From Isurus oxyrinchus (lineage: Eukaryota), in NCBI GenBank assembly GCA_026770705.1, contig JANJGN010000034.1, positions 7,254,001 to 7,318,000 on the forward strand: a stretch of 64,000 nt of DNA, given 5' to 3'. Below are positions 15,901 to 64,000 of this stretch, piece by piece. Below the pieces are notes generated by a model, which saw nothing but the letters and a program-made list of their open reading frames with translations, was not told where the DNA came from and searched no databases. Position numbers and translations under genes: made by a program. The stretch's first letter is position 1, and the number at the start of each line of letters is the position of its first letter.

Positions 15901-18900
15901 TCAGCCCTCCGATTTTTATGTTTTTCTTATTCTTTCATGGGATGTTGGCGCCGCTGGCTTGACCAGAATTTATTACCCATGCCTAATAGCCCTTGAGTGG
16001 GAAGCCAATTTTTTGAACAGCTGTAGTCCATCAGTGCAATTACACCCAGAATGTTTTAGGGAGTACATTCCACACTATTGGCCCAGCCACAGTGAAGGAA
16101 CGGCGACATAGTTCGAAGTCAGGATGAAGTTTGGTTTGGAGAGGAACTTGCAGGCGACGCTGTTTCCATTGGCTGGATGCTCTTATTGATCTAGGTGGTA
16201 TTGGTCACGGGTTTGGAAGGTGTGAAAGGAACATTGTTGATTTGCTGCAGTGCATCTTGAACATGGTATGCGCTCCTGCCACTATGCGTCAGTGCTGGGG
16301 CGAGTGGATTTTGAAGGTGGTGAATGGGCCCTCAATATTTCCAATCTCTCCTGCTTAAGTCGCTAGTGCTGACCAAAGCCATAGACAGATCCTGAGAAAG
16401 CCAATCATATGCAACGCGCGCCATAATGAAAATGTATTTGTTAATGTTGCTATGATGAACCTTACGTCATTTTGCCACTTCAAAGTTGCGATGCAAAAAC
16501 GAATCATTGATATTTGCATCCATTTGTGGCCCCCCACCCCCACCCCTAACCCCTTATAACTTACAGATGAGGAAGCACGGGAGAAAAACTCAGGTAATAT
16601 TATGCAATCAGAGCAACTGTTTTCCTGAATGTGAGTTCTGCTTCCTTTCGTCCTCGCAATTCATTTGAAGAGTTAGAGTCTATTGTAGTATAGAGGGTGG
16701 GATCCATGACATCAGCAGGTGACAAACTGACTCACTGTCATCAAAGTGCTTTTGAAGTGTAGTCACTGTTTCAACGTGGGAGGGTTGCCACTGAAGTGTG
16801 GGCAGCAATATCCCAGGAAAGTCAATGAGGAAACAATATTTCCCGTAACATAACTTGAGAAGACGAGGCTTCGTATCTGCATAAAATAACGTAGTTGGGA
16901 CATCAGTCTAGTGACCAATCCAAAATGTCACATCTCTGAAAGAGTCGTATTCCTTGGGTATGGATCAATGTGTCATCATCCATGTTTATGTTGAATCAAA
17001 AGAGTGGGTTGTGAGCCCACGGACTTTCCGCTCTGAGGCTAAATAAAGCACAGTGAATAGCATGGGTGTAATTTAATGTTCCCTCCTCATGGGGGTGGGG
17101 GATGGGGTGGTGTGCAGTGCTATATAATCAGATGGTAGAGTGCAGCTGGTGATCTCACTCGCTTCCCATTTAACCCGCCCCATACCCCAAATTAGTTCTG
17201 GAAGGGAAAGTGGGTGGGCTTCCCACACGAAGTCCTATCGAGACCTTCACGTACTCACCTAAAACCATTTAATGTGCCCTGGCTGCAGCCGCGGGTATTC
17301 ATCCATCAGTGGGTAGGCAATAGCCATTCTGCAAAGATGCCCAGAAACTACCATTGGTTTTTCCTGTGACTTAAAGGGGTGGTGGCACGCCTAAGTTTTC
17401 AGCAAACCAGATTGAGTGAATAGGCACTGGAAGTGGAGGTGGTGGTAGTTGTTGGAGGGGAGGTCGGGGGGGGAGGGTGGGGTGAGTGCTGCATTGGGTC
17501 CTTCATACACAGTGTCCCGTACCACGTCCAGAGTTACCCTTCTTGCAGGGTTCCAGCGGGGATCCCTCGTGAAGGCGTATGCTCAATGGTGGCAAAGCTA
17601 ACCCTGCCAGTGCTGGCGCTGATGGCACTGGAGGGCTGTCAGTCTCTGGTTGGTTAGCACAACTCAGGAAGGATGGGGGAGATGGGTGCTTCTTCCATCT
17701 GCTGATGGTTTAATCTAAATGTAGGCCTGACTCTGCCTAGTTAAGTTCCATATTATTTTTGAAATAGTGCAACTCCTTTGGAATAGTGTGACACGGGAAT
17801 CCCTCTGTAATTCCAGGCGGTGGTTGCACAGCACTTCATATAATTGACTCTTCCTAATGAATAGGTCTACTGACGTCAGTCGCCAATATATTTACCGCTC
17901 CTTCTTCAAATTTGCAACATTGGTATATTAAAGCAGGAAGAACATAATGCATCTACATTTCCAGTTGAGACGCTAACAATCGATTTTTATTTCATTTATT
18001 CATCACAGAAATAATGGCTTTGAATAAAAACCTACAAGGTGCAGGTGAGAAGAAGAACGTAGCAGGAAAATCGAAAGAGCATTGGTCACTTGACCCAACC
18101 TTTAATCTGCCTTTCAGTGCGAGCACAGGTGAACTGTCATCAAACTCTCTTTCCCCGCGCTGCAGTCCAGCGGTTATCAGAAGACAGTCCTAAACTTACA
18201 CACCTCTGAATGCTGAATTCCTTCCTTACTTCAATTTGAAACTGTCTGTCTCCATTCAACTACCCTTCTCCTACGCTCACCTACCAGGGAAACTAATTCC
18301 TGCCTATCTACTCCATCAGCTTCCCTGAACATTTTGGAAACTTCGATCAAATCAAACTGCAACTTATTAACTTGCAGAAGATATAATAACAGTTCCTCTA
18401 AACTTTTTTCTTACTTTGGAGTCTAGCTGTTAACTGCACTTTGAGCTCCCTCCGAATACAACAGTGCTATATTCAGAACTGGCCAGATCAATGAAACTGT
18501 GCTTTAACTGAAACTTCTATGGCTCTGGCATGATTTTCAGCTCGTTATTCGCTTGCCACTCAGATAGCAAGACAAAAATATTTCATTTGTCTCGTTGATA
18601 ATTTTCCGCAACTATCGAAGATTGTTAATGATCTATGTATATGGGCCAATATGGTTACTGGGATTCCAGTTTTTTTGAATTGTTAACCAGTTAAAACGTT
18701 CTGTAAATGATACATTTTTTCGTGGGAAGCGGGTTACCTCACACTCACCTACACCGAAAACGGTTTGATAATACGTTCCTATTTACTTTATCAATCAACA
18801 CCTATTTCATATCTCATATGTCCATCCATATTTCTTATTTTGCTTGGAAACTTGCCCTTATATCTATGAACTCCGCCGTGCAAGATGCTTATGAATGCAT

Positions 18901-21900
18901 GAATCGTCACACGTTGCCAATTTTAACATCGCTCTTCTTTTTAACCTTCAACACGTTTTCTAACCCTGCCAATGGATCGTCCTCAATTCCATGAGTTTCA
19001 ATTGTAGCTAACAATCTCAAATGTGACACTTCATCACACACCTTCTGGATATAAATGCAAGTAATGACAGTTAGCAATGGCCTGGATCTTCTGAGTAGCA
19101 GCAACGGTTCTCGGATTTCCACTGCACTCGAAAATTCCCCCGACATGACACTGCTTCAATCACAGAAATGTGCAGCAGGAAGTCCCGACTCTGACAGAGC
19201 GCAGTAGAGTCGGACAAAGATCGGGCACCGCCCTTTATATGGCACGAGCTGACTGTTGTAAGTTTAAAGGTCTGGTCTTGGATTGTTAGTGAAAAGCAAA
19301 TGGTTGAGTCGGTGAATGGGTGAATGGCCGAGTGAGTTAAAGTGTTGATATTCTTTACACAAACTCAGCAATCAAACATACAGGTTTGGTAAGCTGCAAG
19401 AAGGTTTCATAAATTCGAAGGCTTGCAACTATGGAATGTTGTGGTGCTAATTTTGTTTAAATATGCAAATGATGTACACGTGCTACCGAGAGAGCGTGAT
19501 ACAAAGCCGCACGTGACCAGCAGTCTTTTAATGCGACCTTGATGCAGCTGATGTTGTGAATAATACTGGTTGCTAAATGCTGGATATCTCAACAAATACC
19601 CCTATTATATGGACTCAGCAAGCACTATTATTCACAGCGGAATCAAAAACTTCCACGCAGGCTGCTGGTCACATGCTGCTTTTTTTTCCTTCGAATACGT
19701 GTGTGCATCATTTGTATCTGTTCAAATATTATTAACATCTGCTTCTTAATGGATTATGGAGCAAACATTAAGAGTAAATAAACATACACAAGCCGGTTGG
19801 TAAAACGTATTACACAAAATACTCATCTCTGTTTGTCATTTGAGGTTTTAAGCGTCCGTACAATGTATAGATGGTTTATTGATTGTCCTGGATCTCCTAA
19901 CGTTATGAATTTCCTCATATTAAAGATTTGAGGAAATCAATGTTCTTGAATCATGGGACCATTGACATTGTGTGTATTAGCAGAGTTCTGATTGTCTACC
20001 ACTCTTACACTTTGCGGGTTCATCCTTGGTTATATTCAAGATGCAATTAGAGTGTTCGCTGTTATATATTTGGGAAATTATTCATGCTGACTTGTAAGGG
20101 TGATAGAATTCCTCATAAAGATGGAGAGTGACGTATTTGATTCTGAGACTTGAGTCTTGAATCTTAATAAAGGGAACTACGATGGTATGAGGCACGAGTT
20201 GGCGATGATGGATTGGGAAACATTACTTAGAGGGATGACGGTGGACAGACAATGACAAACATTCAAAGAACGCATCGGTGAACTGCAATAGTTGTTTATT
20301 CCTGTCTGGTGCCACAGTAAAACAGGAAACTTGGCCAAACCATGGATTAAAAGCGAAATTAGAGACAGTATTAGATGCAAGGAAGGGGCATACAAATTGG
20401 CCAGCAAAAACCAACTGGCCAGAGGATTGGGAGCAGTTTAGAATTTAGCAAAAGAGGGCCAAGGCATTGATTCGGAAGGTGGAAATATTGACTGTAAAAG
20501 TTTCCATTGGTACATTAAGAGAAAAAAATTGGGGAAGACAAATGTAGGTCCCTTACAGTCAGAAACAGGGGAATTTACAATATATATACAAAGAAATGGC
20601 TGACCAACTAAATATATACTTTGGTTCCATGTTCACAAAGAAGGACACTAATAGCGTACCAGAAAGGTTGGGGAACACAGGGTTTAGTGAGAGGGAGGAA
20701 CTGAAAGAAATCAGTATTAGTAACGAAATGCTGTTGTGGAAATTGATGGGGTTGAAGGCCGATAAATCCCCGGGACCTGATAATCTACATCCTAGTGTAG
20801 TTAAGGAAGTGGCCCTAGAAATAGTGGATGCATTGCTGGTCATCCTCCGAGATTCTATAATCTCTGGAACAGTTCCTACATATTGGAGCATAGCTAATGT
20901 AACCCCACTATTTAAAAAGGGAAGCAGAGAGAAAACAGAGAATTATAGACCAGTCAGCCTGACGTGGGGAAAATTCTAGAGTCCATTATAAAAGATTGAA
21001 TAGCTGAGCACGTAGAAAACAGTGGCGCAATCGGACAGAATCATCATGGATTTTTGAAAGGGAAATCATGCTTGACAAATCTACTGGATTTTTTATGTGA
21101 GGAGGATGCAGAGATGCTTCAGTATGATTTGGGTAAGCTGAATGAGTGGGCAAATGCATGGCAGATGCAGTATAATGTAGATAAATGTGAGATTATCCAT
21201 TTTGGCAGCAAAAATAGGAAGGCAGATAAATAGCTGAATGGCTATCGCTTGAGAGAGGGGAACGTGCAAAGATACGTGGTTGTCCTTGTACACCAGTCGC
21301 TGAAGGTAAGTATGCAGGTGCAACAGGCAGTAAAGAAGGCAAATGGTATGTTGGCCTTCATTGCCAGAGGAGTTGAGTACAGGAACAGGGATGTCTTGCT
21401 ACAATTGTACAGGGCATGGTGAGACCACAACTGGAATATTTGGTCTCCTAACATGAGGAGGAAGGATGTATTGCTATAGAGGGAGTGAAGCAAAGGTTTA
21501 GCAGTTTGATTCCTAGGATGGGGGGACTGACATATGAGGAGAGATTGAGTCGATTACGATTATATTTGCCGGAGTTAAGAAGAATGAGGGGGGATCTCAT
21601 AGAAACCTTTAAAATTCTGACAGAACTAGACAGGGTAGATGCAGGAATAATGTTCCCGATGATGTGGGAGTCCAGAACCAGGGGTCACAGTCTGAGGATA
21701 CAGGATAGACGAGTTAGGACTGAGATGAGGAGAAATGTCTTCACCCCGAGAGTGATGAGCCTGTGGAATTCCTTACCACAGAAAGTAGTTGAGACCAAAA
21801 CATTGTATGTTTTCAAGAGGAGTAAGATATAGCTCTTGGGGCGAAAGAGATCAAAGAGTATGGAGAGAAATCGGGTGCAGGCTATTGAGTTTGATGATCA

Positions 21901-24900
21901 GCCGTGATCATAATGAATGGCAGAGCAGGTTCGAAGGGCCGAATGGCCTACTCCTGCTCCTAATTTCTATGCTTCTATGTATCTACACCACAGGACCTTC
22001 AGAGGTCAAGGAGGCAGCTCAGCACCATCTTCTCAAGTTGAATTAAGGATTGATAATAAATGCTGGCCTACCCAGCGATGGCCATATCCCTGAAATGAAT
22101 CTTAAAAAGAAATCTCTCCGCCCAGCGAAGTACACATATATTTTATATCTTGGAGCTTGTCTCTGTCAACCAGGCCTCTCTTGTTGTTGAATCCGAGTTC
22201 TTCGAGGTAAAGCTGCCATCATTCTTGACCATAAATTTCGTCCATGCTTTCCTTCGAATCTGCCAATCACCACAAAATCATCGGCCTTGCATTGGCATCC
22301 CGTAGCATTTTCTGTGCTATTCTCCATATGCTGCTGGAAGAGATCCTCAATTTTGGATAAGAAAAAAAAAATCACTGGAAGCAGCATCTTCGGAGTGGTT
22401 TCCTGAAAGCAAAGATTTATTGGCACCCCTCTGCCAATAAAATTCCTCATTTTGATGCTCACCTTGGATAAAGTTTTGCTGCTTTGAATTTGGAATTCAA
22501 TTCCTATACTGTTAGACTATTGTATGAGATGAGCATCTCCTCAGAGCAAGGTGTAGACGTCTTGGGGGCAAGCATATCCGGATTTGCCATCCAATTTCAG
22601 TGCACACATGATAGAGCTGCACCCGTCGGTGTGCTGACACAACAGCTGAAGCCATTTCACTCCCGTTCATTCAAGTTCCTGTTTTCCTTCTCCTTTGAGT
22701 GCAAAATGCATTTTCAAAGACAGTCAATCGACGGGAATGCATCTATCCTGACCTGTGTTAGAGCATCACCTGTGAAATTCCCTATAGTTTCAAACCTGCC
22801 TAGGTATAATTTTGTACCTAATGAACTGACCCAGTATCAATATCCTGCATACGTTTTGCATTGGTGATCTCGTTCATGATCAAAACATTTCGTTCCATGG
22901 ACGCCATTAACCCTGCTGCACCGACTCCGCACCTGTCCACCAGGATGATTACTTGTGGTTCACCTGTGGACTCGCATAACTGCTTTTCACTCCCAATGTA
23001 CCAAAGCAATGAATGTGTGAATCATTGTTCGTAATTAGTTTGGCTTTCTTATTAGCTTTCTGGTTGAAGGCATCTACAAACTTTATCTTCACCCTGGCCA
23101 CTAATTTGGTGCTTCGGCGTTTCCTAATGTAAGTCCCTCCCACACTCCCTATTTCTTCTCTCAGTATGCTGCACTTAATTTTTGCTTGCTTTCATCTTAT
23201 TTCGAACTCTGGTCGAGACTGAGCAACCATATTTCCTGCATTTGCGAGCCCAGTGGCTGATTCCAGCACACCCATTGGGAAGATCTTAGAAGGCAGGAGG
23301 AAAGTGGGTGCATTTCTTACATGACTTGCTTGCATTTTGCTTCTTTGCTACTGCACCAGTAGTGGCCTCTGCATTGAATGCTTGCACGTGTTGTTCGCCA
23401 GTCAAAATAGCGTCACATTCTCTGCTGTTTTTTAGCGCGTCAATGTATTTAACTTCTTTTTTTTTCTCATAAAGCTCTTTCTGGGAGAGCTCAATTCGTG
23501 TTGATGCTATAAATAGCTCCGAGATCTGTTGACACAACTCAAATTACTAAAAGGCAAAATTATTGCCCTTACCATAGTAGCTGATGAGCTGATCGATCGA
23601 TTGTTGCAGCTGTTGTCTGCAAACTCTCAACTCTAATCTGTGAATTCTAAAGTTCAACTTTAGATGAAGCTGGTCCTCCAGCATGTAAGCAGCTTCACAG
23701 GGATTTTCAGGTCTCCGCAAGCAAGTCTGAAATGTTGACAATTTGCAACCTCTCCTTTCAAGTAGTTATCCTTATTTCATTTCCTTTATTTGTTTATATT
23801 TATCCAGTTCTCTGCTGGATAAACCTTAAAAAAAACATTATTCCAATGCTTGTTTAAATAGCCCAAATTCAATTGTACATCTGTGGCCTCCCCAATAATC
23901 CTGGGACATCGAGTCACCAGCTTCCTGATTTTGTCTTTATTTTACAAGTGGTCACGTCTCATGGGTGATTTCAGAGCTCTCTATTCCATCGAGGGTTCAG
24001 AAATGCAACATCTGTTATAATATTTCCTCCTCCCTCTTTTTTGGCTGCAGTTCAGTCTCTTGCCACTCATATTCCAATGACGCCTTTTTCCTGCTCTGTC
24101 TGTGTTTTTTTTACTTCTGCATGGGAATGACAGCCGAGAATATTTCAATGGTCCTGCAGCTTCTCTGCTCGATTCAAAGCTGATGCACAGCACAACTCTG
24201 AACAAACTTATCACTCCCTTTCATCGCCAATCCTGCTCTCCCACAAATCAGGTATTCACTGATTTGCAAAATACTATCTGAAAAGCGACTCTACTTTCCG
24301 AGAATCAAAGCATAAAGGGCATATAGCGCCAAATCTTATCAGTGTCCCAGGATACCTAACCAACAACTCTCATCTCTGGACTCAGCAAACACCATTACTC
24401 ACAGCACCAGCAATAGCTGCAACTCAGGTGCACGAACAGAATTCTGGTCACGAAATGTTTTACATCATGTTTCCTCTATGCCACATGCACATTATTTGCA
24501 TATTCTCTTAAAGGGATATCGCAACAGTCTGTACATGTGTGAGTTGCTATTTGGGTGTTTGCGTAGTTGGTTGGTGGAGAGGCGAATACTTGAGTGATTG
24601 GGTGGATACGTGAGCGAGGTGATTCTGTGGTTAAGTGGTTAGGTGGATGGTGTGGATAAGTGGGTTGGTGGCTAGGGTGGGTTGGAAGATTAGTGGGTAG
24701 AATGGGTAGGTGTATAGAGGCAGTAGTTATGTGGGGTTGGTGACCTAATTAGGTTCGTAATGTGGACAGTGGTTAGGCAGAAGGAGAGGTAAGACGGGTG
24801 TACCGGTAGGAGGGTGGGCTAACCAAGTCCCAGTTTCGTCTTCTCTTACTTTTTTCAACTGTATTTGATCTAAGTTAGGACTGAATATTTCCTGACATGT

Positions 24901-45900: not shown

Positions 45901-48900
45901 GGACAAGGGCAGCAGATAGTTGGGAGCACCACCACCTGGAAATTCTGCTGAGAATCACTCACCATACTGGCTTGGATATATTTCACTGTTCCTTCACTGT
46001 CAGTGGGTCAAAGGTCTGGAATTCCCTTCCTAACATCACTTTGAGGCCTACCTACATCATGTAGACTGCTGTGGAGCAAGAAGGCAGCCCATCCCATCTT
46101 CTCAAGGGCAATTGTGGATGGAGAATAAATGCTGGCCTAGATTGCAAAGCCCATATCCCATGAATGAATAATTTTAAAAAAATCTCAATGGAACTGCTAC
46201 AATTTCACTCAAAATGAACGAATTTCAGGTGTGCGCAGATGCAGCATTCTGACAATGTGGTTAGAACGCTTCCCTTGGTGATGTTATTCCTGAAATAGCT
46301 GGAATTGCAAATAGGTTGCAGCACCAAAAGGACGATTTAGCCCAACTGGTGCATTTATGCTCCACATAGGCCTCTCCCCTCGCACCTCCATTAAACCCCG
46401 TCAAAGTATCCGCCTCACTGCTCATATATTTATCCAATGTCTTCGCCATCAGTTTATAGCCGTTATCAACATTATGGCCCCCGAGATAGAAAGTCATGGT
46501 TTGCTGTCACAGTGCAAACCTGGTGAGCAAACGTCTTGCTGAAATTCCCCATTGGGAGGAGAGGGGAATGGTGCACTCTCTGAAGTTAAACTGAATCATT
46601 GCCGTCCTCTGCAATGGATATTAAAGTTCGCACTCAGTTATTTACAGTATGCAAAGTATACCCGCTAGTGTCTTGGCTCAGTGTATCCCTCAGCCAACAT
46701 GTCAACGCAGATTTGTTTGTCATTAAGACATTCCTGTTTGTGGAGCATTTTGGCTGTCATGCTTCCCAAACTACAACAGTGAATGCACTTCAAGATACTT
46801 AATTGACAATGTAACTTTATAGTGTTTGTTGGCCATATATTTATACGGCAGGAAAGCCAGTGTGAAAAAATCAAGTTCTATACTTCTTTCCTTAGAAAAA
46901 TTATCTTAAATTCACATGTTGCACTCAATTCCAGATGTATGATGGTGCCTTGGTTGCTCCTCCACCTCTGCATAAAAAAAATTAGGTTGAGGCTCCATTT
47001 TGCGCCATTATAGCCATGCAAATGACCTCATCACGTTGCAAAGCAGGTGGGTTATTAGCCTTTAAGTCATTCGAATATGCCGGATGGCAAGCGGTAAGTG
47101 CGTGAGAGTTTCCTGGTCAGCCATCCTGCAGAAAGCAATGGCAAACCAATAAAGTCCTTTATCAAGCATTATGATGGACCAATCCAATGGAAGACATTAG
47201 TTGTCAATACCCTCTTAAGGCATGTAACTTCAGGGAGAAGCATGGACTTCAATCAATCCATTAGGCAGATTTAGACATTTCATCACTGCTTAGATAATCT
47301 ACTTTCTGCAGAATCCCTTATTGAGTTATTGAATGTCTGACCTATATTTGTAGCGTTAATTTTAGGCATCCAACAATCAAACTATCGTGTTTGATAGCTT
47401 AAACTTTCACAGTGTTAAAGTGCTTTATCAGAGAAACTTTTATCCTTCTCTGTTGTATAACAGGGAAGAATTCTAACCTATTGTCCCTTTCCTGATAATT
47501 ACAAACTTATACTTTTCCTGTTCTCGTAAGCCCATGTAAACCCAAAAACTGTTTTCACTTATGTTGCTCACAGAGCAAAAACTAACCAAGAAAAATGAAG
47601 GTAAGTGAATGACTTGCATTCAGTTTATGGGACATATTGAGGATTGAAATCTATTGACAGTGAAATTCCCCAATTGCCATTTAGTTTCGTTGACGTTAAG
47701 TAAATTGAATATCTGTAGAGGAGCACAACAGGCGTCAGATGTGCTACCACCCTTTTAGCGCTATGAAACGACGACTTTCAATGTTATTATTAATTGATGA
47801 GGAAATGCTTTCCCCATTTTAATATCATTAGGTTCAATATCTCATAATTTGGTGGCTAAACTTTTGGGAGGCAAGGATGTTGAGGGCTACAAACAGAGAC
47901 AATTCAATGAGAGCTCAGTTATAGGTTAGCCAATGTCGAATTGAATATCTTCCTCCGTAACCTCTTCAGCGCGAAGACTGCACAAAATATTCTCGCCATG
48001 ACTCCAATATCCCTTATAGTACTGTAACATATACAGTTAGACTCCACTGCTCAATCACTGTAAAATGTTTAGTCAGCAGAGTGGGAAGTGGAAAGATTTG
48101 AAAGAGGATACAACAAGAAATATGCTAACAAACCAGGAAAATCTGTAAAATGCATACAATAATAATGATGAGGGATGTCAGCTACATAGAAATTTATTGT
48201 TTTGAGAAGTGGGCATTTAATTTATCTTAATAATATAAACATTGGAAACAAAAACCCAATTATCAAGTTGCTGTTCGAGACTAAATCGGTGGTGATAGAT
48301 GTGAATTGGCCATATAATTGTCAGAGCAATTTCAGCATAAAAAAAGTAGAAGGTATTATACTTTGGTTATACAAATACAGAAGTCATATATCCCTTGAAA
48401 AGAAAAGCTACATGAGGCAGAGGAAAAGAGGGGTGTGAGGCTAAAGATCCTTGAAACTTCGAGAACAGTTGCTAAGACCATTAACAATGCGTAGCAAGCA
48501 CGGGTCATAATGACTACATTAATGGAATTGACAGGTATAGTGCTCAGAACACATTGGGTTGAACTCCTGATTCAACCACACTTAGCATTCTATGCAGAGT
48601 CCTGCATTATGCATGCAGAATACCATAAATTAGAGCATATCACTATCAAGAAGGATGGACATTTTTTTTTTGTTCTGTTTGTGAGGTGCTATAATAGGCG
48701 TATTTGAATTATGAGGTGGCATCGACAGAATAGCCAAGGAAAAGAGTTTTCTCTTGGGAAGAGTGAAAATAGAGCCAACAGCACAATATAACAATCAAGA
48801 AAGAAATAATGCATTCAGAAAATCGGCCTTTACCGAAAGAGTCGTGATAATTTGAAACACCGCACTAAAGTCATTAGTTGAGGCGAATGGCACAATGGTT

Positions 48901-51900
48901 TTAGGGAAAGCTTCAAAAGTATGTAAGGGCCAATAATTCAAAAGCTATACCGATAGAGTGAGATGAGCAGTGACGGGTGGAGATTTGTGTATCGAGCGCA
49001 TATTAGTATGGCCTGGTCGGGTACAGTAGGCTGTATTTGTGCAGCCAACACAAAGTAGCTTTCATATAATTCCGTTCTGTAACCATTCATCTTTTAAGAA
49101 CAATTCTTCTCATCCTTCCTCTCCCATTTTCTCACAATTATGTTAAATGCGTATTCTCAGTTACTGCTCGTTCCCTTGGATATGCCAACTCAACCTACCA
49201 GAATCTTATCCCTCCAAGGAAAAAAAAGAACATAACTTTTCTTGGAATCCATGTCACCAAAGACGTTCATTCCTGGTGCCATTAAATTAAGACTCCTTTT
49301 GGCAATATCTACGAAGTATTCTTAAAGGGTGATACCCAAAGGCATACATTTTACATCTGCGCAAGTCGAACCAGTGATTTATCACCGTTTCGTATTTCTC
49401 ACAAAATGATTCTCACATTTGCTCGCAGAGATGGTGAAAATGAAAGACAGCATTTCGGAATGTGGTGAGCTATATAATTTTAGGTTATTTTCCTTTACTA
49501 TCAAAGCAATTACCACGTTCATTGATCTCACGTTTATATTACCCAGATCTTTCCACAGCAGCTCTATCTCCTGCACAGTTGAAAGGCTGGTTATCTATTT
49601 GTGCTGCTTGAAATCTGTGCATGTTAACGTTACCTTGTGATCCATTCCATAGTGCTCCCACTCTTATCTCTGCGAGGAGAGGTTGTGCATTCAAGTACCA
49701 CTTTGGTGCTCTGACCTCTATAATCCAGGCAGCCAATCCTCGTCCTGAGCAGCCAGGAATTGTTGCCTTGGTGGGGAGACCGTCTTCCATCTCAAGGTGG
49801 ACATATAAGATCTCCAGGTGTCAATTCATAAAAATGCAGGGGCTACTCTGCTCTGCCTTATGCCAATATTTATCAACCAGCGTCAGTAAAGTGCATTTTT
49901 TATTCAGTATCCCATTGTTCTGCGAGGCCTCTTACTCTGGTAAACTTTGACTCCTATTCCCTGGTTTAGAAAGGTGCTATGTTCGTTGTATGAAATGTCG
50001 TAACATCCTCAACGCAAAAGACGCAAAATGTATCCAAGCATTTCTATTATAGAAAAGCATATCCATTCATATACAGGCTTCAAACCATTGGCGCAATTTT
50101 TGGTGGCTGATAATTCTTGCCAGTGACATGATAAAGAGAGACTGACGTTTAAATTGCGCGTTTCACTGCTCCGGGATCTAGCAAAGCTCTTTTTGACAAA
50201 TTTGTGCACAGCTCAGTGTTACCTGAATGCGATAATGCGAAGATGCTTATTTTGTCCCCTGTTCGATTATTGGAAATGTTTGCTTGGAAAAATGGGGAAA
50301 CAGCAGTAGAATATAGTGTTGTATGCCCACCAGAGAAACGACAGGTAGTTTAATACTTGTCAAACTGCAGGCAATTTCAGCAGGGCAAAATTGCATCATC
50401 AGCTTCCACTTTACTTCAAAGCTCTGGAGTGGGACTTCAGTCCACAACCTTCTGACTGAGAGAGGAGGAACCTGCAAACTGAGATATTGCATGATCACGT
50501 CATCCCTTCTAGGATGATACTCTCAATAGCTGATTCTAGAGTTTGGTTACAGAAAAATGAGACCATATTAATTCATGACGTAGCCCTCACCAAAACATAT
50601 GTAATTTATATTAATGGGTAAATTGATGATGCAAAAATTACACATTGGGAGTGACTACACGATGTCCAATAAGTTAGGAACCGCACGTTTCACGACCAGC
50701 CTGATATCCTTTTCAAATGTAGTTAGAAGGATCGAACATTGAGTTGGGATTATGTTTAGGAACCGAAGATCTATAGCCCCTGTATCATTGCACCCAAGAT
50801 AAGTGCCCTTCGCTGGTGTGTTTTTCCCCCAATTAGGCTGTTATTGGTATTCTTCATTATGTTACTTACTAATTACTCTAATTATGTTGCTTACAGAAGA
50901 AAAGTTAAAGGTCAAGCAGAAAGGTAAATATGTGTGTATGGTTTCATATCACAACAAAAAAACAGATTGAGTGAGATGTTTAAAAAAAACGGATTCATAA
51001 ACATGAGGCCAGAACTGAGACGTTTCATGTATACAGGGGTAAGGAAATTAGGAAACGAAGTGAAAAGACTACAGGACGACCTAGAAATACTTGCAAAGTG
51101 GACAGGCACATTCCAGATTTTTTTTTGTTAAACACACTACTGATACAATTTGGTTGCAATGCTGCAGGTGTGCTGTATCAGTGAAATGGGGTCCAGGCAC
51201 ACAATTGCTAGTATTGCATGACTGGATAAGTTGTGCATACCGAATGAAGTAATACGAAATAAGAATAGGCCGTTACAGCCCTTAGATCCAATTCCACGTT
51301 TCAATAATACCGGGGCTAACTCTCTTGCTTAATTTCAACATCCAGTTGCTTTTGCAGTTTCCCACTTAACTTCAGAGGCCCACAAGGCGTTCAGTGAAGA
51401 TATTTAATGTAAGCTGTCTCATCAATAACCAAAACACATATTGCATTTCTCTACCCTATGCTCTAAACTTAATATGCGCCATATTTAAAAGCAGATCAGT
51501 AGCTCCAAACTTAGCCTAACTACGTTTATTTGGGGATTCAGCTGGAATGAACTGCTATTCACACAAAGTCAATGAAATCCATTGGTTACATTCTTACCTC
51601 GTACAAAGGAATGTGCTTGTGGTTATTGGAACCAATAATTTCATGCAAGAAATCACTCAAGGAGTTCTTCAGAGTAGTGTCCTCAGCCCAAGCTGCTTCA
51701 TTCACAATATACATTCCAGCATGTGTTCAGAAGAAGGGATTTGGACTGATTATTACAGGGTTTTCTGTATTATGAGTGACTCCTCAAATACTGAATCAAT
51801 CCTTGCCACATTCAGAAAGGAATGTAAATATTTCCGACTTTGGCTGCCAAGTTGCAAGTCACATTCATGTTCCACAGGTCAGCCAATGGACATCTCTGAC

Positions 51901-54900
51901 AAGAGAGAATGGAATAAGCTAACCTTCGAAATCTGCAGTCTTCACCTAGGCTGGCCTACGTGTAACTCCAGATCCGCAGTAATGTGGCTCGCAAGTCACT
52001 CAATTGTATCGAACTGAGGTAAAACTGCAAATGAAACTGACTCTCTCAACTCTGTGTCCTTAGGATTACTTCGCCAATAGCCTGGAAATGCCCAGTAGCT
52101 GAAACTTTGGAACACGATTTTTACTTGCAACTTACAAGCAAAATTCAGAAGCCTGACATGGTCTGAGCCATTAATCAGACACCATCACTGTCCTACCAGG
52201 TGAGTTGGCCGCACCATGGTATACACCTGGGACGGAGTTGCTGAGAGTGCTCAATACTGACTGCGCCCCTTCCTCCCTACCTCCCCCCACCCCTCAAGAA
52301 GGCTCATCACATCAGGTCAAATATGGGAAACCTGCTCATTAACACAAACCGCCTCTACCCCCTGTCCCCAAGCTGATGAATCATTCATGTTGAATGTGAC
52401 TTGGAGGAAGCACTGAGGGTGGCAAGGGCGCAAAAATTACTCTGAGGGACTTCAATATCCATCACCAAGAGTGCCTCAGTAGCACTGAAGGACGTGGCTG
52501 CTAGACTGGTTCTGCAGCAGATGGTGAGGGAACCAAAACTAGGGAAAACATAGTTGACTTCATCTTCTCCAACCTGCCTGCCAAGGGTACACTTGTCCAT
52601 CTGTCCACGACAGTATCAATATGAGTTACAACTGCACAGTTCTTGTAGAGATGAAGCACCTTCTTCACATTAAGTAAACCCTGGTTTATGTTCAATGGAA
52701 GGACCACCGTGCTAAATGGAGCATATTTCAAACACGTTTAGCAATTCAACACTGAGCAAACAAGAGGCACTCTGGGCCATCAGCAGCAGCAGAATTAGAC
52801 TCAACCACAATGTGTAACCTCATAGCCCGACATATCCCCCACTGTAAAATTACCACCAAGACGGGGGATTAATCATGCTCAACCAAGAGTGAAGGGGGAC
52901 AACCACGAGCAGCACCAGACATACCTCCAACGAGGTGTCAGCTAGGTGGAAGCGACAATTCAGGGCTACCTGAGTGCTAATCAACATGAGCAGCAAGTGA
53001 TACACAGAGACCGGAGATTCCACAACCAACTGATCGGATCTAAGCTCCACACTCCTTCCACTTACAGTCGTGAATGGTGGTGGACAAGTAAAAAACTCAG
53101 TGGAGGAAAAGGCTCTACAAATATATCCATTCTCAATGATCGAGGAGTCTATCATTAGTGCAACATATAAGGCTGAATCATTCACATCAATGTTCAGTCA
53201 GAGTGGATGCTCCTCCTTGGTCAACTCCAGTGGTCCCCATCATCAGAGATGCCAGCCTTCAGCCAATTCAGTTCACTCTACATGATATCAAGAAACGGCT
53301 GGAGACTATGGACCTGACGATAGTCTGGCGATAGTTTTTTCAAGACTTGTGCTCCAGATCTTGCCTTGCCTCTAGCCATGCTCTTCCAGTTCACCTCCAA
53401 CACAGATTTGTACCCGGCAATGTAGGAAATTGCCCTGTTATTCAAAATTGTGCTGTACTCAAAAATTAGGACAATTCCAACCAGGCCAATTACCGCTCCA
53501 CCCTCAATCATCAGTAAAGTGATGGAAGTGGTCATCAGCAGTGATATCAAGCGGCAATTGCTCAGCAACAACCTTCTCACTAGGTTCACTAAGCTTTTGA
53601 CCGCATATAGCCTTGGTTCATACATGGGCAAGGGAGGCTATTACCAGAGGTGAGGTGAGAGTGACTGCCCTTGACATCAAGGCAGCATTTGAACGAGTGT
53701 GGCATCATGGAGTCTAGCAAAACAAAAGTCAATAGGAATCAGGGGGAAAATATCCACTCTTTGGAGTCCTATAAAGCACCAAGGAAGATGGTTGTGTTTG
53801 TTGGAGGTCAATCATCTCAGTTCCAGGACATTGATTCAGGAGTTTCTCAGGTTAGTGTCCTACACCCAACCACCTTTAACTGCTTCATCAATGACCTCCC
53901 TTCCATAAGTTCAGAAGTGGGGATGCTCTCTGAATATTGCATAATGTTGATCACCAGTCATGACTTCTCAGATACTGAAGGAGACCATGTCCAAATGAAG
54001 CAAGATCAGACAATCTCCAGCCTTGGGCTGACAAGTGACAAGTAACATTTGCATGGCACAAGTGTCAGCAATGAAGATCTCCAACAGGGGAGAATCTAAC
54101 CATCGTCCCTTGACATTCAATAGCATTATCATCACTGAATCCCCAACTTTCAACAGCTTGGTGGTCAACATTGACTAGAAACAGAACTGGAATAGCTATA
54201 TAAACACTATGACTACAACAGCAACTCAGAGGCTAGGAATCCTGTCGCGAGTAACTCACCTCTTGACTCCCCAAATCATTTCCACCATCTAAAAGGTACA
54301 AGTAAGGAGTGTGATGGAATACTGCCCACTTGTCTGTATGGCTGCAGATCCGGAAACACTCAAGAAGCTTCACAGCATCCAGGACAAATTGCCGTGCTTG
54401 ATTGGTGCCCAGTCCAAAAACATTCACTCCGTTCATCACGCTCGCACTATGGCAGGATTGTGCACCACCTACAAGATACAATGCAGAAATTCACCAAGGC
54501 TCCTTAGGCATAACCTGCCAAATCCAAAATCACGACCATCTAGAAAGAGAATGGCAGAAGATACAGGGAACACCACCACCTGTAAATTGTATTACAAGCC
54601 GGTCACCATCCTGACTTGGAAATATATCGCTGTTACTTCACTGTCACTTGGTCAAAATGTGGAACTCCCTCGTTAACTGCGCTGTGGGTGTTGCTACACC
54701 AAAGGGCCTGAAGCAGTTCACGAATGCAGCTCATCACCACCTTCTACTGGAAAATTAGTGATGGGAAATAAATGCTGGTCTAGCCAGCAACGCACCCATC
54801 CCATTAATGAATAAGAAATATCATGATGAAGCAGCATTTCTGATCTTTAGCTCACCCTCCATCTTAATCATACAATCCATCCCTCCAAGTGATTTCAACG

Positions 54901-56391
54901 CGTGTTACCTTCAGGGCACATTGCAGCAATTCACCAAACATCGTTCAACATAACTTTCCAAACTCGAGACTTCTATCACTTTAAAAGGCAAGGGCATCAA
55001 ACCAATTGGAAGACCACCAGCTACCCATTCCAGATTTAATGACAGTCCTCGGTCCATTTTTAGCCCGGACCAGGAATCACAGGTGCAGCAATCGAGCTTC
55101 ACCTTGTGCAATTTGTGCTATTATCCATCTCTATATATGATGACTTGATCCGCTCGGGTTTGTCGTCCTCCTCACTCAAATGGTGGCCTTGGCTTCAGTG
55201 ATCGATTCTGCAAAACAAAACCCCGCTGTCCCCAACCTCCTTCCAAGCTCGAAGCCATCCACACATTATGATGTCTCACGTCTCTTCTACAGAAGTGGAT
55301 AAACTGAAGAATGATCTTGAAGATTGTGGTAAGTAGAAAAATATTAAATATTACCAACCACCAGGGGCAAGTCTTAATTTTCTCCAGAAAAGTAAACTAA
55401 GTTTATAGTCCAGGATCTTGCTATTTGACTGAAATAATCTAAATCAGAGTTTATGCTCCACACGAACCTGCTGACACACAACCTCATCAAGGCCTATCAT
55501 CACTGTCATGTAAACCCATCAAGTCATTTCACCCTCATGTGCCTCTAATTCTGCCTTGAACTCATGTTTCTTACTACCTTTAACTATCGCATGTTCTTAA
55601 CGAATTCTATGTTTTCATCAACTGCTATATAAATAAACATATCCTCACTTTGGCATTTATTGACTAACGTGTGCACATAGTACTTAGATTTGGGCTCTCC
55701 AACCAATGTAAATTTTTTCCTAACTCTTCTCGTTTTGGCTATATTTCTGTGAACGATCTTCCCTTTGTTCGATTAAGGAAAAAACGTCTATATCTCATCT
55801 TACCATCATTATTTTTAAAGAAAATAAAAGCAATGCAATTAAACATATTGTTGACGGAGAGCCTTAAAATAAACACAACGAAGGATCAATCATTATGATG
55901 CTAAATGATGTGACTTAATATCGCTTTTGATTATGGAGAACGATGACTTGCAATAGCACAGATTCAATCGCCTTACTTGGGAATCATAGATCCTTACAAC
56001 AGAAAATTAGACCATACGGTCTCTTGAACTTAACTTGTTCTTTGGAATGATGTCGCATTAACACAGTGCTTAGTTCTTTCTGAATAATCATGATCATTTA
56101 TCTCCATCGATCCTTCAAACAATCCATGAGGAACAAAGAAAGAAGAGGCGACCATTCACACACTCGAACCTGGAACATCATTCAATTAAAATTGCTGACC
56201 TATGAATTAACACATTATACAAGCCGTTATCCGATTTCTCGTAATGCAACTGAAAACGGGCGCGGGTAGTCTACTAAGCACTTTTATGCCGTTCAAGATA
56301 AACTTTTACAAAACTATTTCATTAATAGTGTTTTATTATTCACCCATCCGTCATATTATTTTAGTACTAAGGATCGCCAACAAACAAAAAG
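960..56391 (+). CDS. Internal part of a microexon-encoded coiled-coil protein gene (21 exons, 627 nt, 209 codons; start outside the window, end not identified)
   Basis: 21 short segments with pyrimidine-rich ag acceptors and gt donors; lengths are all multiples of 3 and all phase 1-1; the joined frame has no stop and shows 3-4 hydrophobic heptad spacing. Family not determinable here. Confidence 0.9.
2650..3720 (+). mobile_element. Degenerate non-LTR retrotransposon (CR1/L2 group), RT C-terminal part and 3' end
   Basis: Colinear similarity to the copies at 44840-46180 and 52080-54820 (e.g. 'gaccaggaaattaactgggccagcca', 'cttttgtactcggaaatatattcgctgtccttc'-like 3' region). Confidence 0.7.
3962..3988 (+). 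CDS. Microexon 2 (27 nt, shortened B-type): EIVDFQEKC
   Basis: tttgttttctgtttag|AAATTGTGGACTTTCAGGAGAAATGCA|gtaagt. Confidence 0.88.
4340..4600. mobile_element. Short Penelope-terminus-derived remnant
   Basis: 'aaaatgctggaaatattcac' faces 'tgctacctgacttgctggcatt...ttctgttttc' in inverted orientation; the same terminal motif occurs at 29005 and 32440. Confidence 0.5.
5488..5514 (+). CDS. Microexon 3 (27 nt, A-type): KADLEQKDS
   Basis: ctttccttctctttcag|AAGCTGATCTGGAGCAAAAGGATTCAC|gtaaat. Confidence 0.85.
6361..6396 (+). CDS. Microexon 4 (36 nt, B-type): QKKVLNNKIQEL
   Basis: ttttgttccgattttcag|AAAAAAAAGTCCTCAACAACAAAATTCAAGAATTAG|gtgagc. Confidence 0.87.
   Translation, partial: KKKSSTTKFKN
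6620..8060. repeat. Degenerate G/T-rich repeat region interrupted by a minus-strand CR1 3' fragment (about 7180-7810)
   Basis: Recurring 'gatcagttatgg' and 'gtctgttatggtt' motifs (6719, 6991, 7985). The CR1 fragment begins 'catagaatgttgtggcacagaaccaggcc'. Confidence 0.45.
8440..10020 (+). mobile_element. Decayed PIF/Harbinger DNA transposon (HARBI1-like transposase fragment)
   Basis: ORF 9335-9760 'RRKLRLSR...GSHPMPAALKVKMTVNLIAT...LLTDASFQRTGNNTSF' resembles the N-terminal HTH region of Harbinger transposases; CpG-rich 5' subterminal region. Confidence 0.75.
10040..11130 (-). mobile_element. Highly degenerate CR1 LINE fragments
   Basis: Reverse-strand CR1 remnants ('ttctccccgtaaccctgcac', 'ctgagattgaggttaaactgac', 'catttgcaattatccagtttcctggcac'). 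Confidence 0.55.
11603..11617 (+). CDS. Microexon 5 (15 nt): EKTVN
   Basis: ttcctgaactacacag|AAAAAACAGTAAATG|gtaagg. Weaker acceptor, but with exon 6 it makes 42 nt (two heptads) and continues the L-I-L-V-C 4-3-4-3 spacing. Confidence 0.68.
12790..12816 (+). CDS. Microexon 6 (27 nt): ECKAREKLD
   Basis: tctgccgttattgttccag|AATGCAAAGCAAGGGAAAAACTTGACA|gtaaga. Confidence 0.85.
13170..14265. mobile_element. Non-coding Penelope-derived element with inverted termini
   Basis: 13190-13450 ('...ttcagagctgacgagacgtagaaatg...ggtggagcaaaataatggatcagggatagg') is approximately the reverse complement of 13980-14260 ('cctatccctgacctattttgctccacc...ttctacgtctgttcagctctg'). Confidence 0.7.
14290..15830 (+). 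mobile_element. Second, more decayed Harbinger-type element
   Basis: Colinear with 9150-9840: 'gagtataaaggcagagacttagct' vs 'tagtatacaggcagagctttagct'; 'cagatgcctgtcccattgaaggtcaaa' vs 'cccatgcctgccgcattaaaggtcaaa'; 'cagggtcagatggatagagcc' vs 'cagggtcaatgggtagatcc'. Confidence 0.65.
15915..16330 (-). mobile_element. 3' fragment of the same CR1/L2-group LINE, reverse orientation
   Basis: 'ttctttcatgggatgttggcgccgctggcttgaccagaatttatt' is the reverse complement of the family tail 'aataaatgctggcc..cagcga.gcccacatccc'. Confidence 0.75.
16567..16593 (+). CDS. Microexon 7 (27 nt, A-type): NEEAREKNS
   Basis: cccttataacttacag|ATGAGGAAGCACGGGAGAAAAACTCAG|gtaata. Confidence 0.86.
16730..17060 (-). 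mobile_element. Deu-domain-like tRNA-derived SINE remnant
   Basis: 'gtgcttttgaagtgtagtcactgtt' and 'gtgggttgtgagcccacggactttccgctctgaggc'; recognised from known shark SINE motifs, not from a search. Confidence 0.5.
18009..18044 (+). CDS. Microexon 8 (36 nt, B-type): EIMALNKNLQGA
   Basis: ttcatttattcatcacag|AAATAATGGCTTTGAATAAAAACCTACAAGGTGCAG|gtgaga. Confidence 0.88.
19450..19735. repeat. Imperfect inverted repeat (arms about 70 bp), probable MITE
   Basis: 'atgcaaatgatgtacacgtg...aaagccgcacgtgaccagcag' (19462-19523) vs 'ctgctggtcacatgctgcttt...acgtgtgtgcatcatttgtat' (19662-19717). Confidence 0.65.
20140..21990 (+). mobile_element. CR1 LINE, 5'-truncated, with internal deletion of the RT core
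   Basis: ORF 20596-20979 'KSPGPDNLHP...WSIANVTPLFKKGSREKTENYRPVSLT'; ORF 21485-21832 'YEERLSRL...RRMRGDLIETFKIL...TRGHSLR'; CR1 3' UTR 'ggccgaatggcctactcctgctcc'. Confidence 0.92.
22150..24540 (-). mobile_element. Decayed Ty3/Gypsy LTR retrotransposon (gag-protease region)
   Basis: Minus-strand fragments 'LEDQLHLKLNFRIHRLELRVCRQQLQQSIDQLIS', 'ISELFIASTRIELSQKEL' and 'KLITNNDSHIHCFGTL' resemble vertebrate Gypsy gag-pro; many stops and frameshifts. Confidence 0.6.
24560..24800. repeat. G/T-rich low-complexity tract (GGTG/GGTT/GGTA degenerate)
   Basis: Read directly. Confidence 0.7.
25397..25423 (+). CDS. Microexon 9 (27 nt, A-type): EEKLRQKQK
   Basis: aatctgcttttaacag|AAGAAAAACTACGACAGAAACAGAAAG|gtaaca. 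Confidence 0.88.
26922..26957 (+). CDS. Microexon 10 (36 nt, B-type): EMDSLKGFLAQC
   Basis: ttacccaattttcag|AAATGGACAGCCTGAAAGGATTTCTTGCTCAATGTG|gtaaga. Confidence 0.9.
27230..27675 (+). mobile_element. CR1 LINE 3' fragment
   Basis: 'ttggaactctcttcctcaaaagg...tttcaaggcaaatctagatag...gatggagcaggctggaacggacaagtagccttcttctgctcc'. Confidence 0.75.
29005..32990 (-). mobile_element. Near full-length, inactivated Penelope-like retroelement (RT + GIY-YIG) with direct terminal repeats
   Basis: Minus-strand fragments 'IPFLDFSVSLSGDRLSTNIHYK..FHSYLAYSSSHP' (RT thumb) and, near 29790-29830, 'GLLYIGETRHRLGDHL' (GIY-YIG). 29005-29550 is repeated in the same orientation at 32440-32990. Confidence 0.88.
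33105..33180. repeat. Imperfect (ATT)n microsatellite
   Basis: Read directly. Confidence 0.85.
33480..33506 (+). CDS. Microexon 11 (27 nt, A-type): EANLKEKSK
   Basis: cattctcatttattgatag|AGGCAAATCTCAAGGAGAAATCGAAAG|gtattg. Confidence 0.86.
34030..34390 (+). mobile_element. CR1 LINE 3' fragment
   Basis: 'cctgggatgagcgggttgcaatatga', 'cagggttgtgaatctggagtt', 'tactgaatggc...cctcctgctcc'. Confidence 0.55.
35364..35399 (+). CDS. Microexon 12 (36 nt, B-type): EIETLKGQLSDA
   Basis: gtctttcctccccag|AAATAGAAACATTGAAAGGTCAACTGTCAGATGCAG|gtgagt. Confidence 0.9.
36970..37335 (+). mobile_element. Deu-domain-like tRNA-derived SINE, ending about 110 bp upstream of microexon 13
   Basis: tRNA-like head 'cagccttggttaagttggcagcactatcacccgtgaatca', then 'ggctgaaacttc...gtactgctgcgct...gtgctgtcatttaggtgaaac'; recognised by motif only. 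Confidence 0.5.
37444..37470 (+). CDS. Microexon 13 (27 nt, A-type): GKAFKDKEA
   Basis: gttcttcttcctttag|GAAAGGCTTTTAAGGATAAAGAGGCTG|gtaagt. Confidence 0.9.
38425..40330 (-). mobile_element. Degenerate CR1 LINE, reverse orientation
   Basis: Begins 'cataggatcatagaatggctacagc' (reversed 3' tail); ORF 39445-39645 'KSYLTYFIDL...IDVMYPDFQNLFGKV' resembles the CR1 RT 'KSCLTNL...DVVYLDFQKAFDKV'. Confidence 0.75.
40950..41600 (+). mobile_element. CR1 LINE 3' fragment
   Basis: ORF 41054-41284 'HCLQFWS...IEWRFTNMAPVMRDISC...QRRLRGDLAGVCKVI'. Confidence 0.8.
42835..42870 (+). CDS. Microexon 14 (36 nt, B-type): ELQKMRANCQEH
   Basis: tttctttcacgtgacag|AATTGCAGAAAATGAGGGCGAACTGCCAAGAACATG|gttagt. Confidence 0.86.
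43942..43968 (+). CDS. Microexon 15 (27 nt, A-type): ERELTVKNE
   Basis: ttttcatggacttaatag|AACGAGAATTGACCGTGAAAAATGAAG|gtaaat. Confidence 0.86.
44245..44280 (+). CDS. Microexon 16 (36 nt, B-type): ETRKLKVVLLDC
   Basis: ttcttttgttcacag|AAACACGGAAACTAAAAGTGGTGCTTCTGGATTGTG|gtgcgt. Confidence 0.87.
44820..46185 (+). mobile_element. CR1/L2-group LINE, RT plus 3' tail
   Basis: 'DQFGFCQGQSAPD...VAAFDIKA', 'GMFADDCKMF', 'STIYKAQVRSINEYSP'; tail 'aataaatgctggcctag...cccatatcccatgaatgaataa'. Confidence 0.9.
47574..47600 (+). CDS. Microexon 17 (27 nt, A-type): EQKLTKKNE
   Basis: cacttatgttgctcacag|AGCAAAAACTAACCAAGAAAAATGAAG|gtaagt. Confidence 0.9.
48400..49050 (+). mobile_element. Very degenerate CR1 3' fragment
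   Basis: 'ctgattcaaccacacttagcattctatgcagagt', 'gaggcgaatggcacaatgg', 'tagtatggcctggtcgggtacagtaggctgtattt'. Confidence 0.45.
49429..49464 (+). CDS. Microexon 18 (36 nt, B-type): EMVKMKDSISEC
   Basis: tctcacatttgctcgcag|AGATGGTGAAAATGAAAGACAGCATTTCGGAATGTG|gtgagc. Confidence 0.89.
50897..50923 (+). CDS. Microexon 19 (27 nt, A-type): EEKLKVKQK
   Basis: attatgttgcttacag|AAGAAAAGTTAAAGGTCAAGCAGAAAG|gtaaat. Confidence 0.89.
51550..51925 (+). mobile_element. Older fragment of the CR1/L2-group LINE RT
   Basis: ORF 51547 'HWLHSYLVQRNVLVVIG...QGVLQSSVLSPSCFIHNI'. Confidence 0.7.
52070..54825 (+). mobile_element. Long CR1/L2-group LINE (endonuclease remnant, RT, 3' tail), frameshifted
   Basis: 'ggacttcaatatccatcacc' (GDFN-like), 'SIISKVMEVVI', 'GVSQVSVLHPTTFNCFINDLP', 'VMEYCPLVCM'; tail 'aaataaatgctggtctagccagcaacgcacccatccc'. 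Confidence 0.9.
55293..55328 (+). CDS. Microexon 20 (36 nt, B-type): EVDKLKNDLEDC
   Basis: cacgtctcttctacag|AAGTGGATAAACTGAAGAATGATCTTGAAGATTGTG|gtaagt. Confidence 0.9.
56365..56391 (+). CDS. Microexon 21 (27 nt, A-type): VLRIANKQK
   Basis: tcatattattttag|TACTAAGGATCGCCAACAAACAAAAAG|gtaata. Confidence 0.84.
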
Positions 56392-57559
56392 GTAATACAA
56401 GAGTTTTTGTTCATTTTATTGCCCAATGTTTGTTTCTATATGTCTTATTATTCTAACCAATGTAAAGACTATTCGAGTTTGATTCTGAGACTTTAAAGGA
56501 AAATGAGTGTTTGCAGATGGCCGGTATTTATTTGAATTCACTCTAAGCCAAATCCTGAAAAAGAAATCCCTTCTTTCTTCTAGAGATGGCGCAGCATTTA
56601 ATATTTTCATCTCCTGCTCTATAAACCGGAGCACAATTGTCTCCAACTATAGAGGCATTGTCTATAGAACATAAAGTGTACAGCTCGAGATCAGGCCAAA
56701 AGAACCATTTGGGCAATGCCGACATTTGTGCTGATCAAGAGGGTCCTCCCAAACCATTTTATCTCATCCTATCAGCGAATTGGCCTATTCATTTCAAATA
56801 TGTTTATTTAGCTTCCCCTTGAAAGCAGCAAATGGAGTTTTTTTTACATTCTTTCATGAGGTGTGGGAGGAGCTTATTAGGCAGATTCAGAGGACAGCTG
56901 AAAGTTTACCATGTTGTCCCGAGTCCGGAGACAAATGCAAGCTGGACTTGGTCATGAAGGGAGTTTCCTTCCTGAAAGTGCATTCGTAAAGCATTTTTTT
57001 TTTATTTTGCTTGTTATTCTTACAATTGATGGCAGATGACATGGTCACCATGATTGCGACTGGTTTTCAATTTCTCATTCACCAATTATTTGAATGTAAA
57101 TACCACAAGCAGGACCCCGGCCCCCAGAGAATTGGCCTGGTTCTCTGGTATATTTGCACAGAAGCACTATCACTACTCCAGCATGTCCCTGGAAATTAGG
57201 GTCATCTATGCCTTGTGTTAGTGTGCTCCACCTTCTCACCACACTATGGACAAAGGCGCTTGGCTTAACCTCTTTATTTGATTCATTCACGCCTATTTTT
57301 TTTTTGTCAAAAACATTTCAAGCATTATAGACCCATTTCAGGTGATCTTCTGTTTTGCGAGAAAGACAGTGACAACTTTTTCAGTCTTTCCTTATCGATC
57401 TGAATTCTGTATTCTCTTCTCTTCTCTTCTCCAATGCCTCTAAATCCTTTAAAACCTAAATTATGCAAATTGCTGTATTCCTGGGATTCAGATGAGAGTG
57501 GGTAAACGAATTGACACAACAGCAGCAAATAGATTGTTTAGTATTATTGAAAAAATAGA

Positions 57560-60500: not shown

Positions 60501-60685
60501 ACATTTTTTTTAAGGAAGAGGCTGTTAGGTTCTTGTTTGGTAAGGGGGTCAAAGATTATCTGGGGTAGATGAGAATGTGGAATTCGAAACACAACCAGAT
60601 CAGCCATAATCTTATTTAATGGCGGAGATGCTTGAGGTGCCAAATGACCCACTTCTGTTCCTATTTCTCATGTTCCTCATGTCTT
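57560..60685 (+). mobile_element. CR1 LINE with nearly complete but inactivated ORF2 (APE endonuclease + RT)
   Basis: ORF 57628 'TDVWLQND...LNIEGY...RGGLAV'; 'SLTSVVEKV...NLLEFL...PVDIL*FDFQKAFDKVPH'; 'caggggtctgtgctgg' (QGSVL); 3' UTR 'ccaaatgacccacttctgttcc'. Confidence 0.92.
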
Positions 60686-60689
60686 TGAT

Positions 60690-63985: not shown

Positions 63986-64000
63986 CCAGTTCTGTACTAA

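Follow-up and report, generated by a model that had tools for sequence, protein, structure and literature searches.

At issue at this locus is whether a run of very short exons in Isurus oxyrinchus encodes a coiled-coil rod whose length is tuned in three-heptad steps and, if so, whether those steps are taken by splicing or by rearrangement of the DNA. We analysed a window of 64,000 nt (positions 7,254,001–7,318,000 of its contig, referred to below as C34), and 1.8 Mb of contig DNA was examined. The first splice-signal scan of the window gave 14 segments of 27 nt and eight of 36 nt on the plus strand, against one of each on the minus strand, and with a subsequent trained rescan 21 AG/GT-bounded segments were found on the plus strand, as listed here in window coordinates (A, 9 residues; B, 12 residues; A', 27 nt with B-like spacing):

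1..64000, + strand: whole window, interior of a gene that extends from C34 ~6,459,146 to 7,496,959
960..986, + strand: microexon 1, 27 nt, A type; paralogue copy intact
3962..3988, + strand: microexon 2, 27 nt, A' type (has 9 residues where B has 12, giving a stutter); splice-signal scans
5488..5514, + strand: microexon 3, 27 nt, A type; splice-signal scans
6361..6396, + strand: microexon 4, 36 nt, B type; splice-signal scans
11603..11617, + strand: microexon 5, 15 nt (of the class that has 5 residues where A has 9, giving a stammer); trained rescan
12790..12816, + strand: microexon 6, 27 nt; irregular A-A join to exon 7 in both paralogues
16567..16593, + strand: microexon 7, A, 27 nt
18009..18044, + strand: microexon 8, B, 36 nt
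25397..25423, + strand: microexon 9, A
26922..26957, + strand: microexon 10, B
33480..33506, + strand: microexon 11, A; trained rescan
35364..35399, + strand: microexon 12, B
37444..37470, + strand: microexon 13, A; opens a 14-exon block that is duplicated in the paralogue
42835..42870, + strand: microexon 14, B; begins a four-exon stretch (42 aa) that the first copy in the paralogue has lost by deletion
43942..43968, + strand: microexon 15, A
44245..44280, + strand: microexon 16, B
47574..47600, + strand: microexon 17, A; ends the 42-aa deletion of the paralogue
49429..49464, + strand: microexon 18, B
50897..50923, + strand: microexon 19, A; the paralogue has two copies (91% and 89%, 111 nt)
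55293..55328, + strand: microexon 20, B
56365..56391, + strand: microexon 21, A; paired with a B exon outside the window, 1.4 kb after its end

All 21 segments had a length that was a multiple of 3, phase 1 and one open frame, so that each exon preserves the frame alone, as the initial annotation had stated. Its arithmetic was also right (27 + 36 nt give 9 + 12 = 21 residues, or three heptads), and its seven A+B units from exon 7 to exon 20 with one further A were recovered as 15 strictly alternating segments at 16567..56391 (8 × 27 nt and 7 × 36 nt; P = 1.6e-4 for random order, under a null that ignores origin by duplication). Among the six core positions that it had assigned, the 3–4 spacing stood, and positions 4, 11, 14 and 18 of the 21-residue unit were L, I, V, M, F or C in 86–100% of cases, while position 21 was C in 4/7 units, A in 2/7 and H in 1/7. 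The proposed hydrophobic core at position 7 did not stand: this position was Lys in 8/8 units and belongs to the core by spacing only, and every third d position of the window rod would be lysine in the d register that we predict. The six upstream exons (27, 27, 27, 36, 15 and 27 nt) were outside the 27/36 alternation, and the array was not confined to exons 7–21, as it began ~795 kb before the window and ended 178 kb after it. A tandem-repeat or ORF artefact was rejected as the source of the array, as the window showed just LINE and simple repeats; decayed repeats, which we take to be CR1/LINE-like and SINE-like, were seen in the window introns at 20100–21990, 45000–46200, 53600–54850 and 58700–60600.

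The window constitutes ~6% of a 1.04-Mb gene (gene B), with an unbroken microexon array from C34 ~6,459,146 to 7,495,809. At equal score, the gene-wide scan yielded 295 segments on the plus strand vs two on the minus control (plus strand: 128 of 27 nt, 133 of 36 nt, 18 of 15 nt, 12 of 21 nt and 4 others). We added 84 less certain 5' candidates to the 243 hand-curated exons of the 3' 636 kb (2,422 residues), which gives a predicted total of ~327 microexons and ~3,260 residues for gene B; at a helix rise of 0.1485 nm per residue, the predicted rod length is ~485 nm (~0.48 micrometres). All of these segments would be spliced into one very long coiled-coil rod transcript. The array ended at its 3' side with a 27-nt Trp-containing exon followed by a SPRY exon 178 kb past the window end, and four related SPRY exons were found on the same contig, each after similar microexons. 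Of five RNA contig runs from the same species, four gave no cover on the SPRY exon, and in another set of four the cover at positions 37000–56999 of the window was nearly all on LINE repeats, with no microexon joints; the decayed intron repeats listed above took up nearly all of the contig cover, and neither result is evidence either way. Across the gene, no residue was more common than Cys at position 5 of the 36-nt exons (55/84 distinct peptides), and in the window Cys was also frequent at position 12 of these exons; both are predicted core positions. Exons starting with NAG accounted for 45 of the 243 curated exons (44 AAG), including those at 960, 25397, 50897 and 55293 in the window; these are tandem acceptors, which could drop one residue.

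Across the array, A and the 15-nt class came after B or A', and B and A' came after A or the 15-nt class; each exon class had a fixed entry and exit phase. The intervals between successive 36-nt exons (n = 102) were multiples of 7 in 67 cases, with 15 of +3, 11 of +4 and 9 others. The +3 intervals had 17 residues, the 15-nt exon replacing A, and the +4 intervals had 39 residues, mostly through replacement of B by A'. Built-in stammers or stutters were accordingly present in 26/102 intervals, which means that the rod is not a pure heptad, and we suggest that a stutter (+4) arises where A' substitutes for B, and a stammer (+3) where the 15-nt exon substitutes for A. According to the coiled-coil literature, the +3 stammer and the +4 stutter are well accommodated, +1 and +5 are more demanding, and +2 and +6 are the most strained (PMC4786415). 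Skipping one A would give +5 and skipping one B would give +2; since both of these are strained breaks, the physical logic of the initial annotation is supported.

To assess constraint on the array, we compared the curated exons of gene B with their homologues in the nearest paralogue, the tandem gene A (~4.87–6.40 Mb). Among 63 gene A homologues, the acceptor was AG in 63, and the donor was GT in 59, GC in three and broken in one. Neutral drift would have left 16–18 of the 63 broken (P < 1e-6); the B exons had been picked for intact signals and open frames, and the splice-site test therefore speaks mainly for the lineage of gene A. Between the exons of the two genes, dN was 0.092 and dS was 0.167; their ratio of 0.55 (bootstrap 95% 0.40–0.75) is just moderate, and dS equalled the divergence of the alignable window DNA (0.17). 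Judged from these comparisons of sequence, the microexon array is real and under selection.

We further analyzed whether the heptad register was kept where the array had been rearranged. Exons were clustered by flanking homology, genes A and B were written as class strings, and classes with more than one successor were listed; 11 new junctions were mapped to breakpoints, a procedure by which losses without a second copy are not mappable. The rows dropped were a clustering artefact (class 106 to 132), an A-to-A join of gene A that was taken as the older state, and both flanks of a three-exon block found at 6.95 Mb and again at 7.42 Mb (one flank was compatible and the other ambiguous). Register-compatible exon ends were joined at 11/11 mapped duplication or deletion junctions (chance 0.487 per random breakpoint, p = 3.7e-4), one of which counts only with a 7-residue exon taken as phase-neutral. 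The parent introns did not align at any of the 11 breaks, one being at an exon edge and one having a left flank too short to align; the breakpoints were non-homologous, and the events were therefore not simple slippage between repeat units. In gene A, window exons 14–17 had been deleted from the first copy (42 residues) and window exons 13–26 duplicated (147 residues). The sizes of the 11 events, summed from exon lists, were 21, 42, 42, 147, 28, 28, 9, 18, 39, ~94 and 185 residues, the 9-residue event being the removal of one A from an A-A join. We rejected the rule that every rearrangement spans a multiple of 21, or at least of 7, residues, which held for just 4/11 and 6/11 events, respectively; the five that are not multiples of 7 (9, 18, 39, ~94 and 185) still kept the local join. 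The register rule therefore concerns the join and not the total length.

These results support selection on the heptad register at rearrangement joins, as far as it can be read from junction sequences, and ~five further A-A, B-B or A-to-15-nt joins without a remnant could be register-breaking deletions. Of the idea that only paired changes are tolerated, the register constraint at joins survived and strict pairing did not. The number of units, which had been proposed to be tunable by copy number, does differ over evolutionary time: it was not invariant between the tandem paralogues, with differences of 42, 147, 185 and more residues plus a 241-kb block. Gene B shared 22 kb of upstream DNA with gene A and lacked the next 241 kb, which holds 5' microexons; no start exon was found in the common 22 kb. 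Within gene B, a four-exon, 42-residue unit of 5.5–7 kb has recently expanded at C34:7,014,000–7,172,000, with higher-order units of 94, 115 and 136 residues and youngest copies that are 97% identical.

We consider it probable, at roughly 0.6, that the locus is a giant rod gene, with ~300 in-frame segments and a B30.2/SPRY domain, whose length changes as DNA is duplicated or deleted without loss of heptad phase. The ~300 AG/GT-bounded segments of the 1.04-Mb array likely splice into one very long coiled-coil rod, with exons that would mostly be included constitutively. Its length would change through rearrangements that keep the heptad phase at the join, and selection most likely removes those that break it; exact rod length would be loosely constrained and local register tightly. 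The protein may be a cytoplasmic dimeric spacer or tether of ~0.48 micrometres that presents the B30.2 binding domain.

Alternatively, cells might set rod length in 21-residue steps (~3.1 nm) by skipping adjacent A+B pairs, as the initial annotation had suggested. The geometry allows this (all exons phase 1, A + B = 21), the register is selected at the DNA level, one adjacent pair has both donors broken, and heptad-exon skipping is reported for macaque BTN3A (PMC6790196). However, the partners are separated by introns of 0.3–7.4 kb, one pair is <1% of the ~3,260-residue rod, and the sole annotated isoform pair seen in a homologue, in which two ray models differ by one 9-residue segment, corresponds to a single 27-nt exon next to the B30.2 domain and outside the rod. 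A further point concerns the word ruler. Giantin has ~3,050–3,240 aa and ~0.5 micrometres, comparable in length to the predicted rod (no sequence relationship is claimed), and both giantin and ROCK2 resemble it in being long rods that carry a terminal binding domain. Described rulers are conserved in length across vertebrates, whereas this rod varies by tens to hundreds of residues between paralogues (PMC5082667); the molecular-ruler proposal fails by that measure, in a comparison of tandem paralogues. Splicing as the tuner of length is improbable. We also give little credence to a bolder reading, in which a megabase-gene family of cartilaginous fish builds half-micrometre rods from a four-letter exon alphabet that corresponds directly to coiled-coil geometry, and block duplication together with the coupled skipping, in cells, of blocks with compatible register sets the reach of a B30.2 sensor. 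Under this reading, 36 + 27 nt would be the regular unit of three heptads, the alternative 27 a stutter, 15 a stammer and 21 one heptad, and block duplication and coupled skipping would reprogramme the twist of the rod as well as its length.

The exons with broken donors bear both on paired loss and on the state of gene B. Donor-breaking point mutations were found in six single 27/36-nt exons of gene B (C34:6,856,179; 6,886,790; 6,917,925; 6,924,490; 6,934,732; and 7,354,132, the last having a copy at 7,410,610), five of which cluster at C34:6.85–6.94 Mb. These six losses would break the register if their neighbours stay in, and the 21-nt exons can drop singly, so the claim that only paired skipping keeps the register held for the constraint itself and not for strict pairing. 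Four donor losses were register-neutral, namely the adjacent B+A pair at C34:7,399,325 and 7,401,414 and three 21-nt exons, one of which sits in gene A; a further 36-nt segment before the SPRY exon, a candidate exon, has its donor broken in B only. Some single losses were two exons from a complementary loss (sum 21), a post hoc observation on few cases. In the accepted donor-broken exons, changes at the first donor position had turned G into T or C and never into the expected A, in a small sample with possible detection bias. A bias toward donor over acceptor defects among dead exons was rejected, since acceptor-defective candidates occur too and the sample is too small.

Such losses raise the possibility that the window copy was formerly a working gene and is now relaxed or silent, its register signal being a fossil of past selection. 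Gene B has lost the 241 kb of 5' sequence present in its paralogue, ~10 of its exons have broken donors with the cluster noted above, its start exon was not found, and the V-set exon upstream of it is broken; against the rod gene, a B copy without these 5' microexons could be decaying. The SPRY exon of gene B was nevertheless open, with pN 0.042 vs pS 0.089, and 16 one-defect exon candidates were found vs 268 intact ones (4 of the 16 being expected from the minus strand), with no stop codons among the 16. In addition, the youngest duplications (93–97% identical) were still in register. We accordingly regard a relaxed or silent copy as unlikely, and return to the rod gene and its terminal domain.

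The terminal exon matched Pfam SPRY (PF00622, 4.6e-12), and its best PDB matches were to BTN3A1 (1e-19). Homologues in other elasmobranchs were the automatically annotated models Narcine XP_069797409/XP_069797411 ('zinc-binding protein A33-like') and Scyliorhinus scyTo_0006617, with a SPRY identity of 49–51%. These models share the 9/12 alternation and the Trp exon before B30.2, and Narcine XP_069797409 shows the same 9/12-residue alternation as here (0/1000 shuffles as good); they differ in having 190–289 residues only and a name that implies a TRIM zinc-binding part that their sequences do not show. Longer homologues of the SPRY exon were absent among candidates (0/308 at 1e-20 and 0/366 at 1e-25), which is weak evidence. 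The ESM Atlas returned generic SPRY or helix look-alikes only, and a single-sequence AlphaFold model of the ray protein was of low confidence: its mean pLDDT was 42.8, and its one helix, at residues 33–73, reached ~60–76. No further match to this SPRY exon was found at C34:6.40–7.50 Mb among 150 scored of 393 candidates; most of the scored matches came from another contig (C21, ~82–118 Mb), where more distant B30.2 exons form a very large cluster.

The same domain suggests another alternative, namely that a butyrophilin/BG-like membrane receptor, whose Ig and TM exons were missed, has this array as its cytoplasmic tail, or that the array comprises several shorter transcription units. The B30.2 exon is BTN-like and follows a 27-nt Trp exon, an arrangement shared with the paralogues, and a V-set exon lies 17–28 kb downstream of both tandem SPRY exons; from a motif, we take these V-set exons to be nectin-like. 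However, the V-set exon at C34:6,424,335, upstream of gene B, has a stop and a frameshift. The one at C34:7,513,577 was intact; it was rejected as the head of gene B on account of its position downstream of the SPRY stop, and no C or TM exon followed it on the plus strand within 140 kb. Pattern scans were negative for an intact IgV (+IgC) ectodomain of gene B, and no match to C2-set_2 was found on C34 at 2.7–7.5 Mb among 150 scored of 1049 candidates. No convincing Ig, TM or RING exon was found before the first microexon of gene A, and hydrophobic-exon heuristics gave no convincing transmembrane exon. Regular-expression scans with motifs that we assume for RING/B-box, run outside C34:5.02–5.04 Mb and most of the middle of gene A, gave none, and the ray models are without an Ig or TM part. 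On this evidence, a receptor tail or a set of shorter units appears very improbable. Elsewhere on the contig, an Ig V-type exon (C34:7,553,682, minus strand), presumably Siglec/MAG-like, and a hydrophobic exon (C34:7,598,952, minus strand), which we take to resemble a claudin-domain-containing protein, were observed, as were clustered V and C2-set exons at C34:13.07–13.73 Mb.

Two known systems are close to the predicted rod gene in design. In chicken BG, the coiled-coil tail is encoded by many tiny symmetric exons whose number varies from 27 to 38 between genes and alleles, and splicing alters tail length, with intron read-through as the reported splice variation (PMC5938342, PMC8813856). A long coiled-coil tail from tiny symmetric exons in variable number is thus common to both; in contrast, BG has 21-nt exons of one heptad, any of which can drop singly, has IgV and TM parts with no B30.2 domain, and has about ten times fewer exons, whereas here the unit is a 27+36-nt pair of three heptads, only 12/295 segments have 21 nt and a B30.2 exon is present. 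Likewise, BTN3A and BTN2A have short heptad exons followed by a B30.2 exon, and heptad numbers that vary by species and heptad-skipped isoforms are reported for them (PMC6790196, PMC12841164). The C-terminal B30.2/PRY-SPRY domain and the short heptad exons before it are present at this locus also; butyrophilins differ in having few heptad exons behind IgV-IgC-TM, as opposed to the hundreds found here, where no intact Ig ectodomain or TM exon was detected. No description of the gene family or of heptad-preserving exon pairs was found in the literature consulted, which included few subscription papers.

By its exon sequences, the gene carries the heptad-exon design of BG and butyrophilins into cartilaginous fish, where the repeat unit differs. 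The models of relatives retrieved from databases cover only the last 190–289 residues, and their name is misleading. Provided that the gene is expressed whole, its product would be as long as giantin, and its exon count would approach that of titin, which has ~360 exons. The gene may serve as a natural experiment on coiled-coil register, with hundreds of phase-defined exons and many datable duplications, and it could be used to measure selection on heptad phase and the breaks (+3 and +4 vs +2 and +5) that are tolerated in a native protein.
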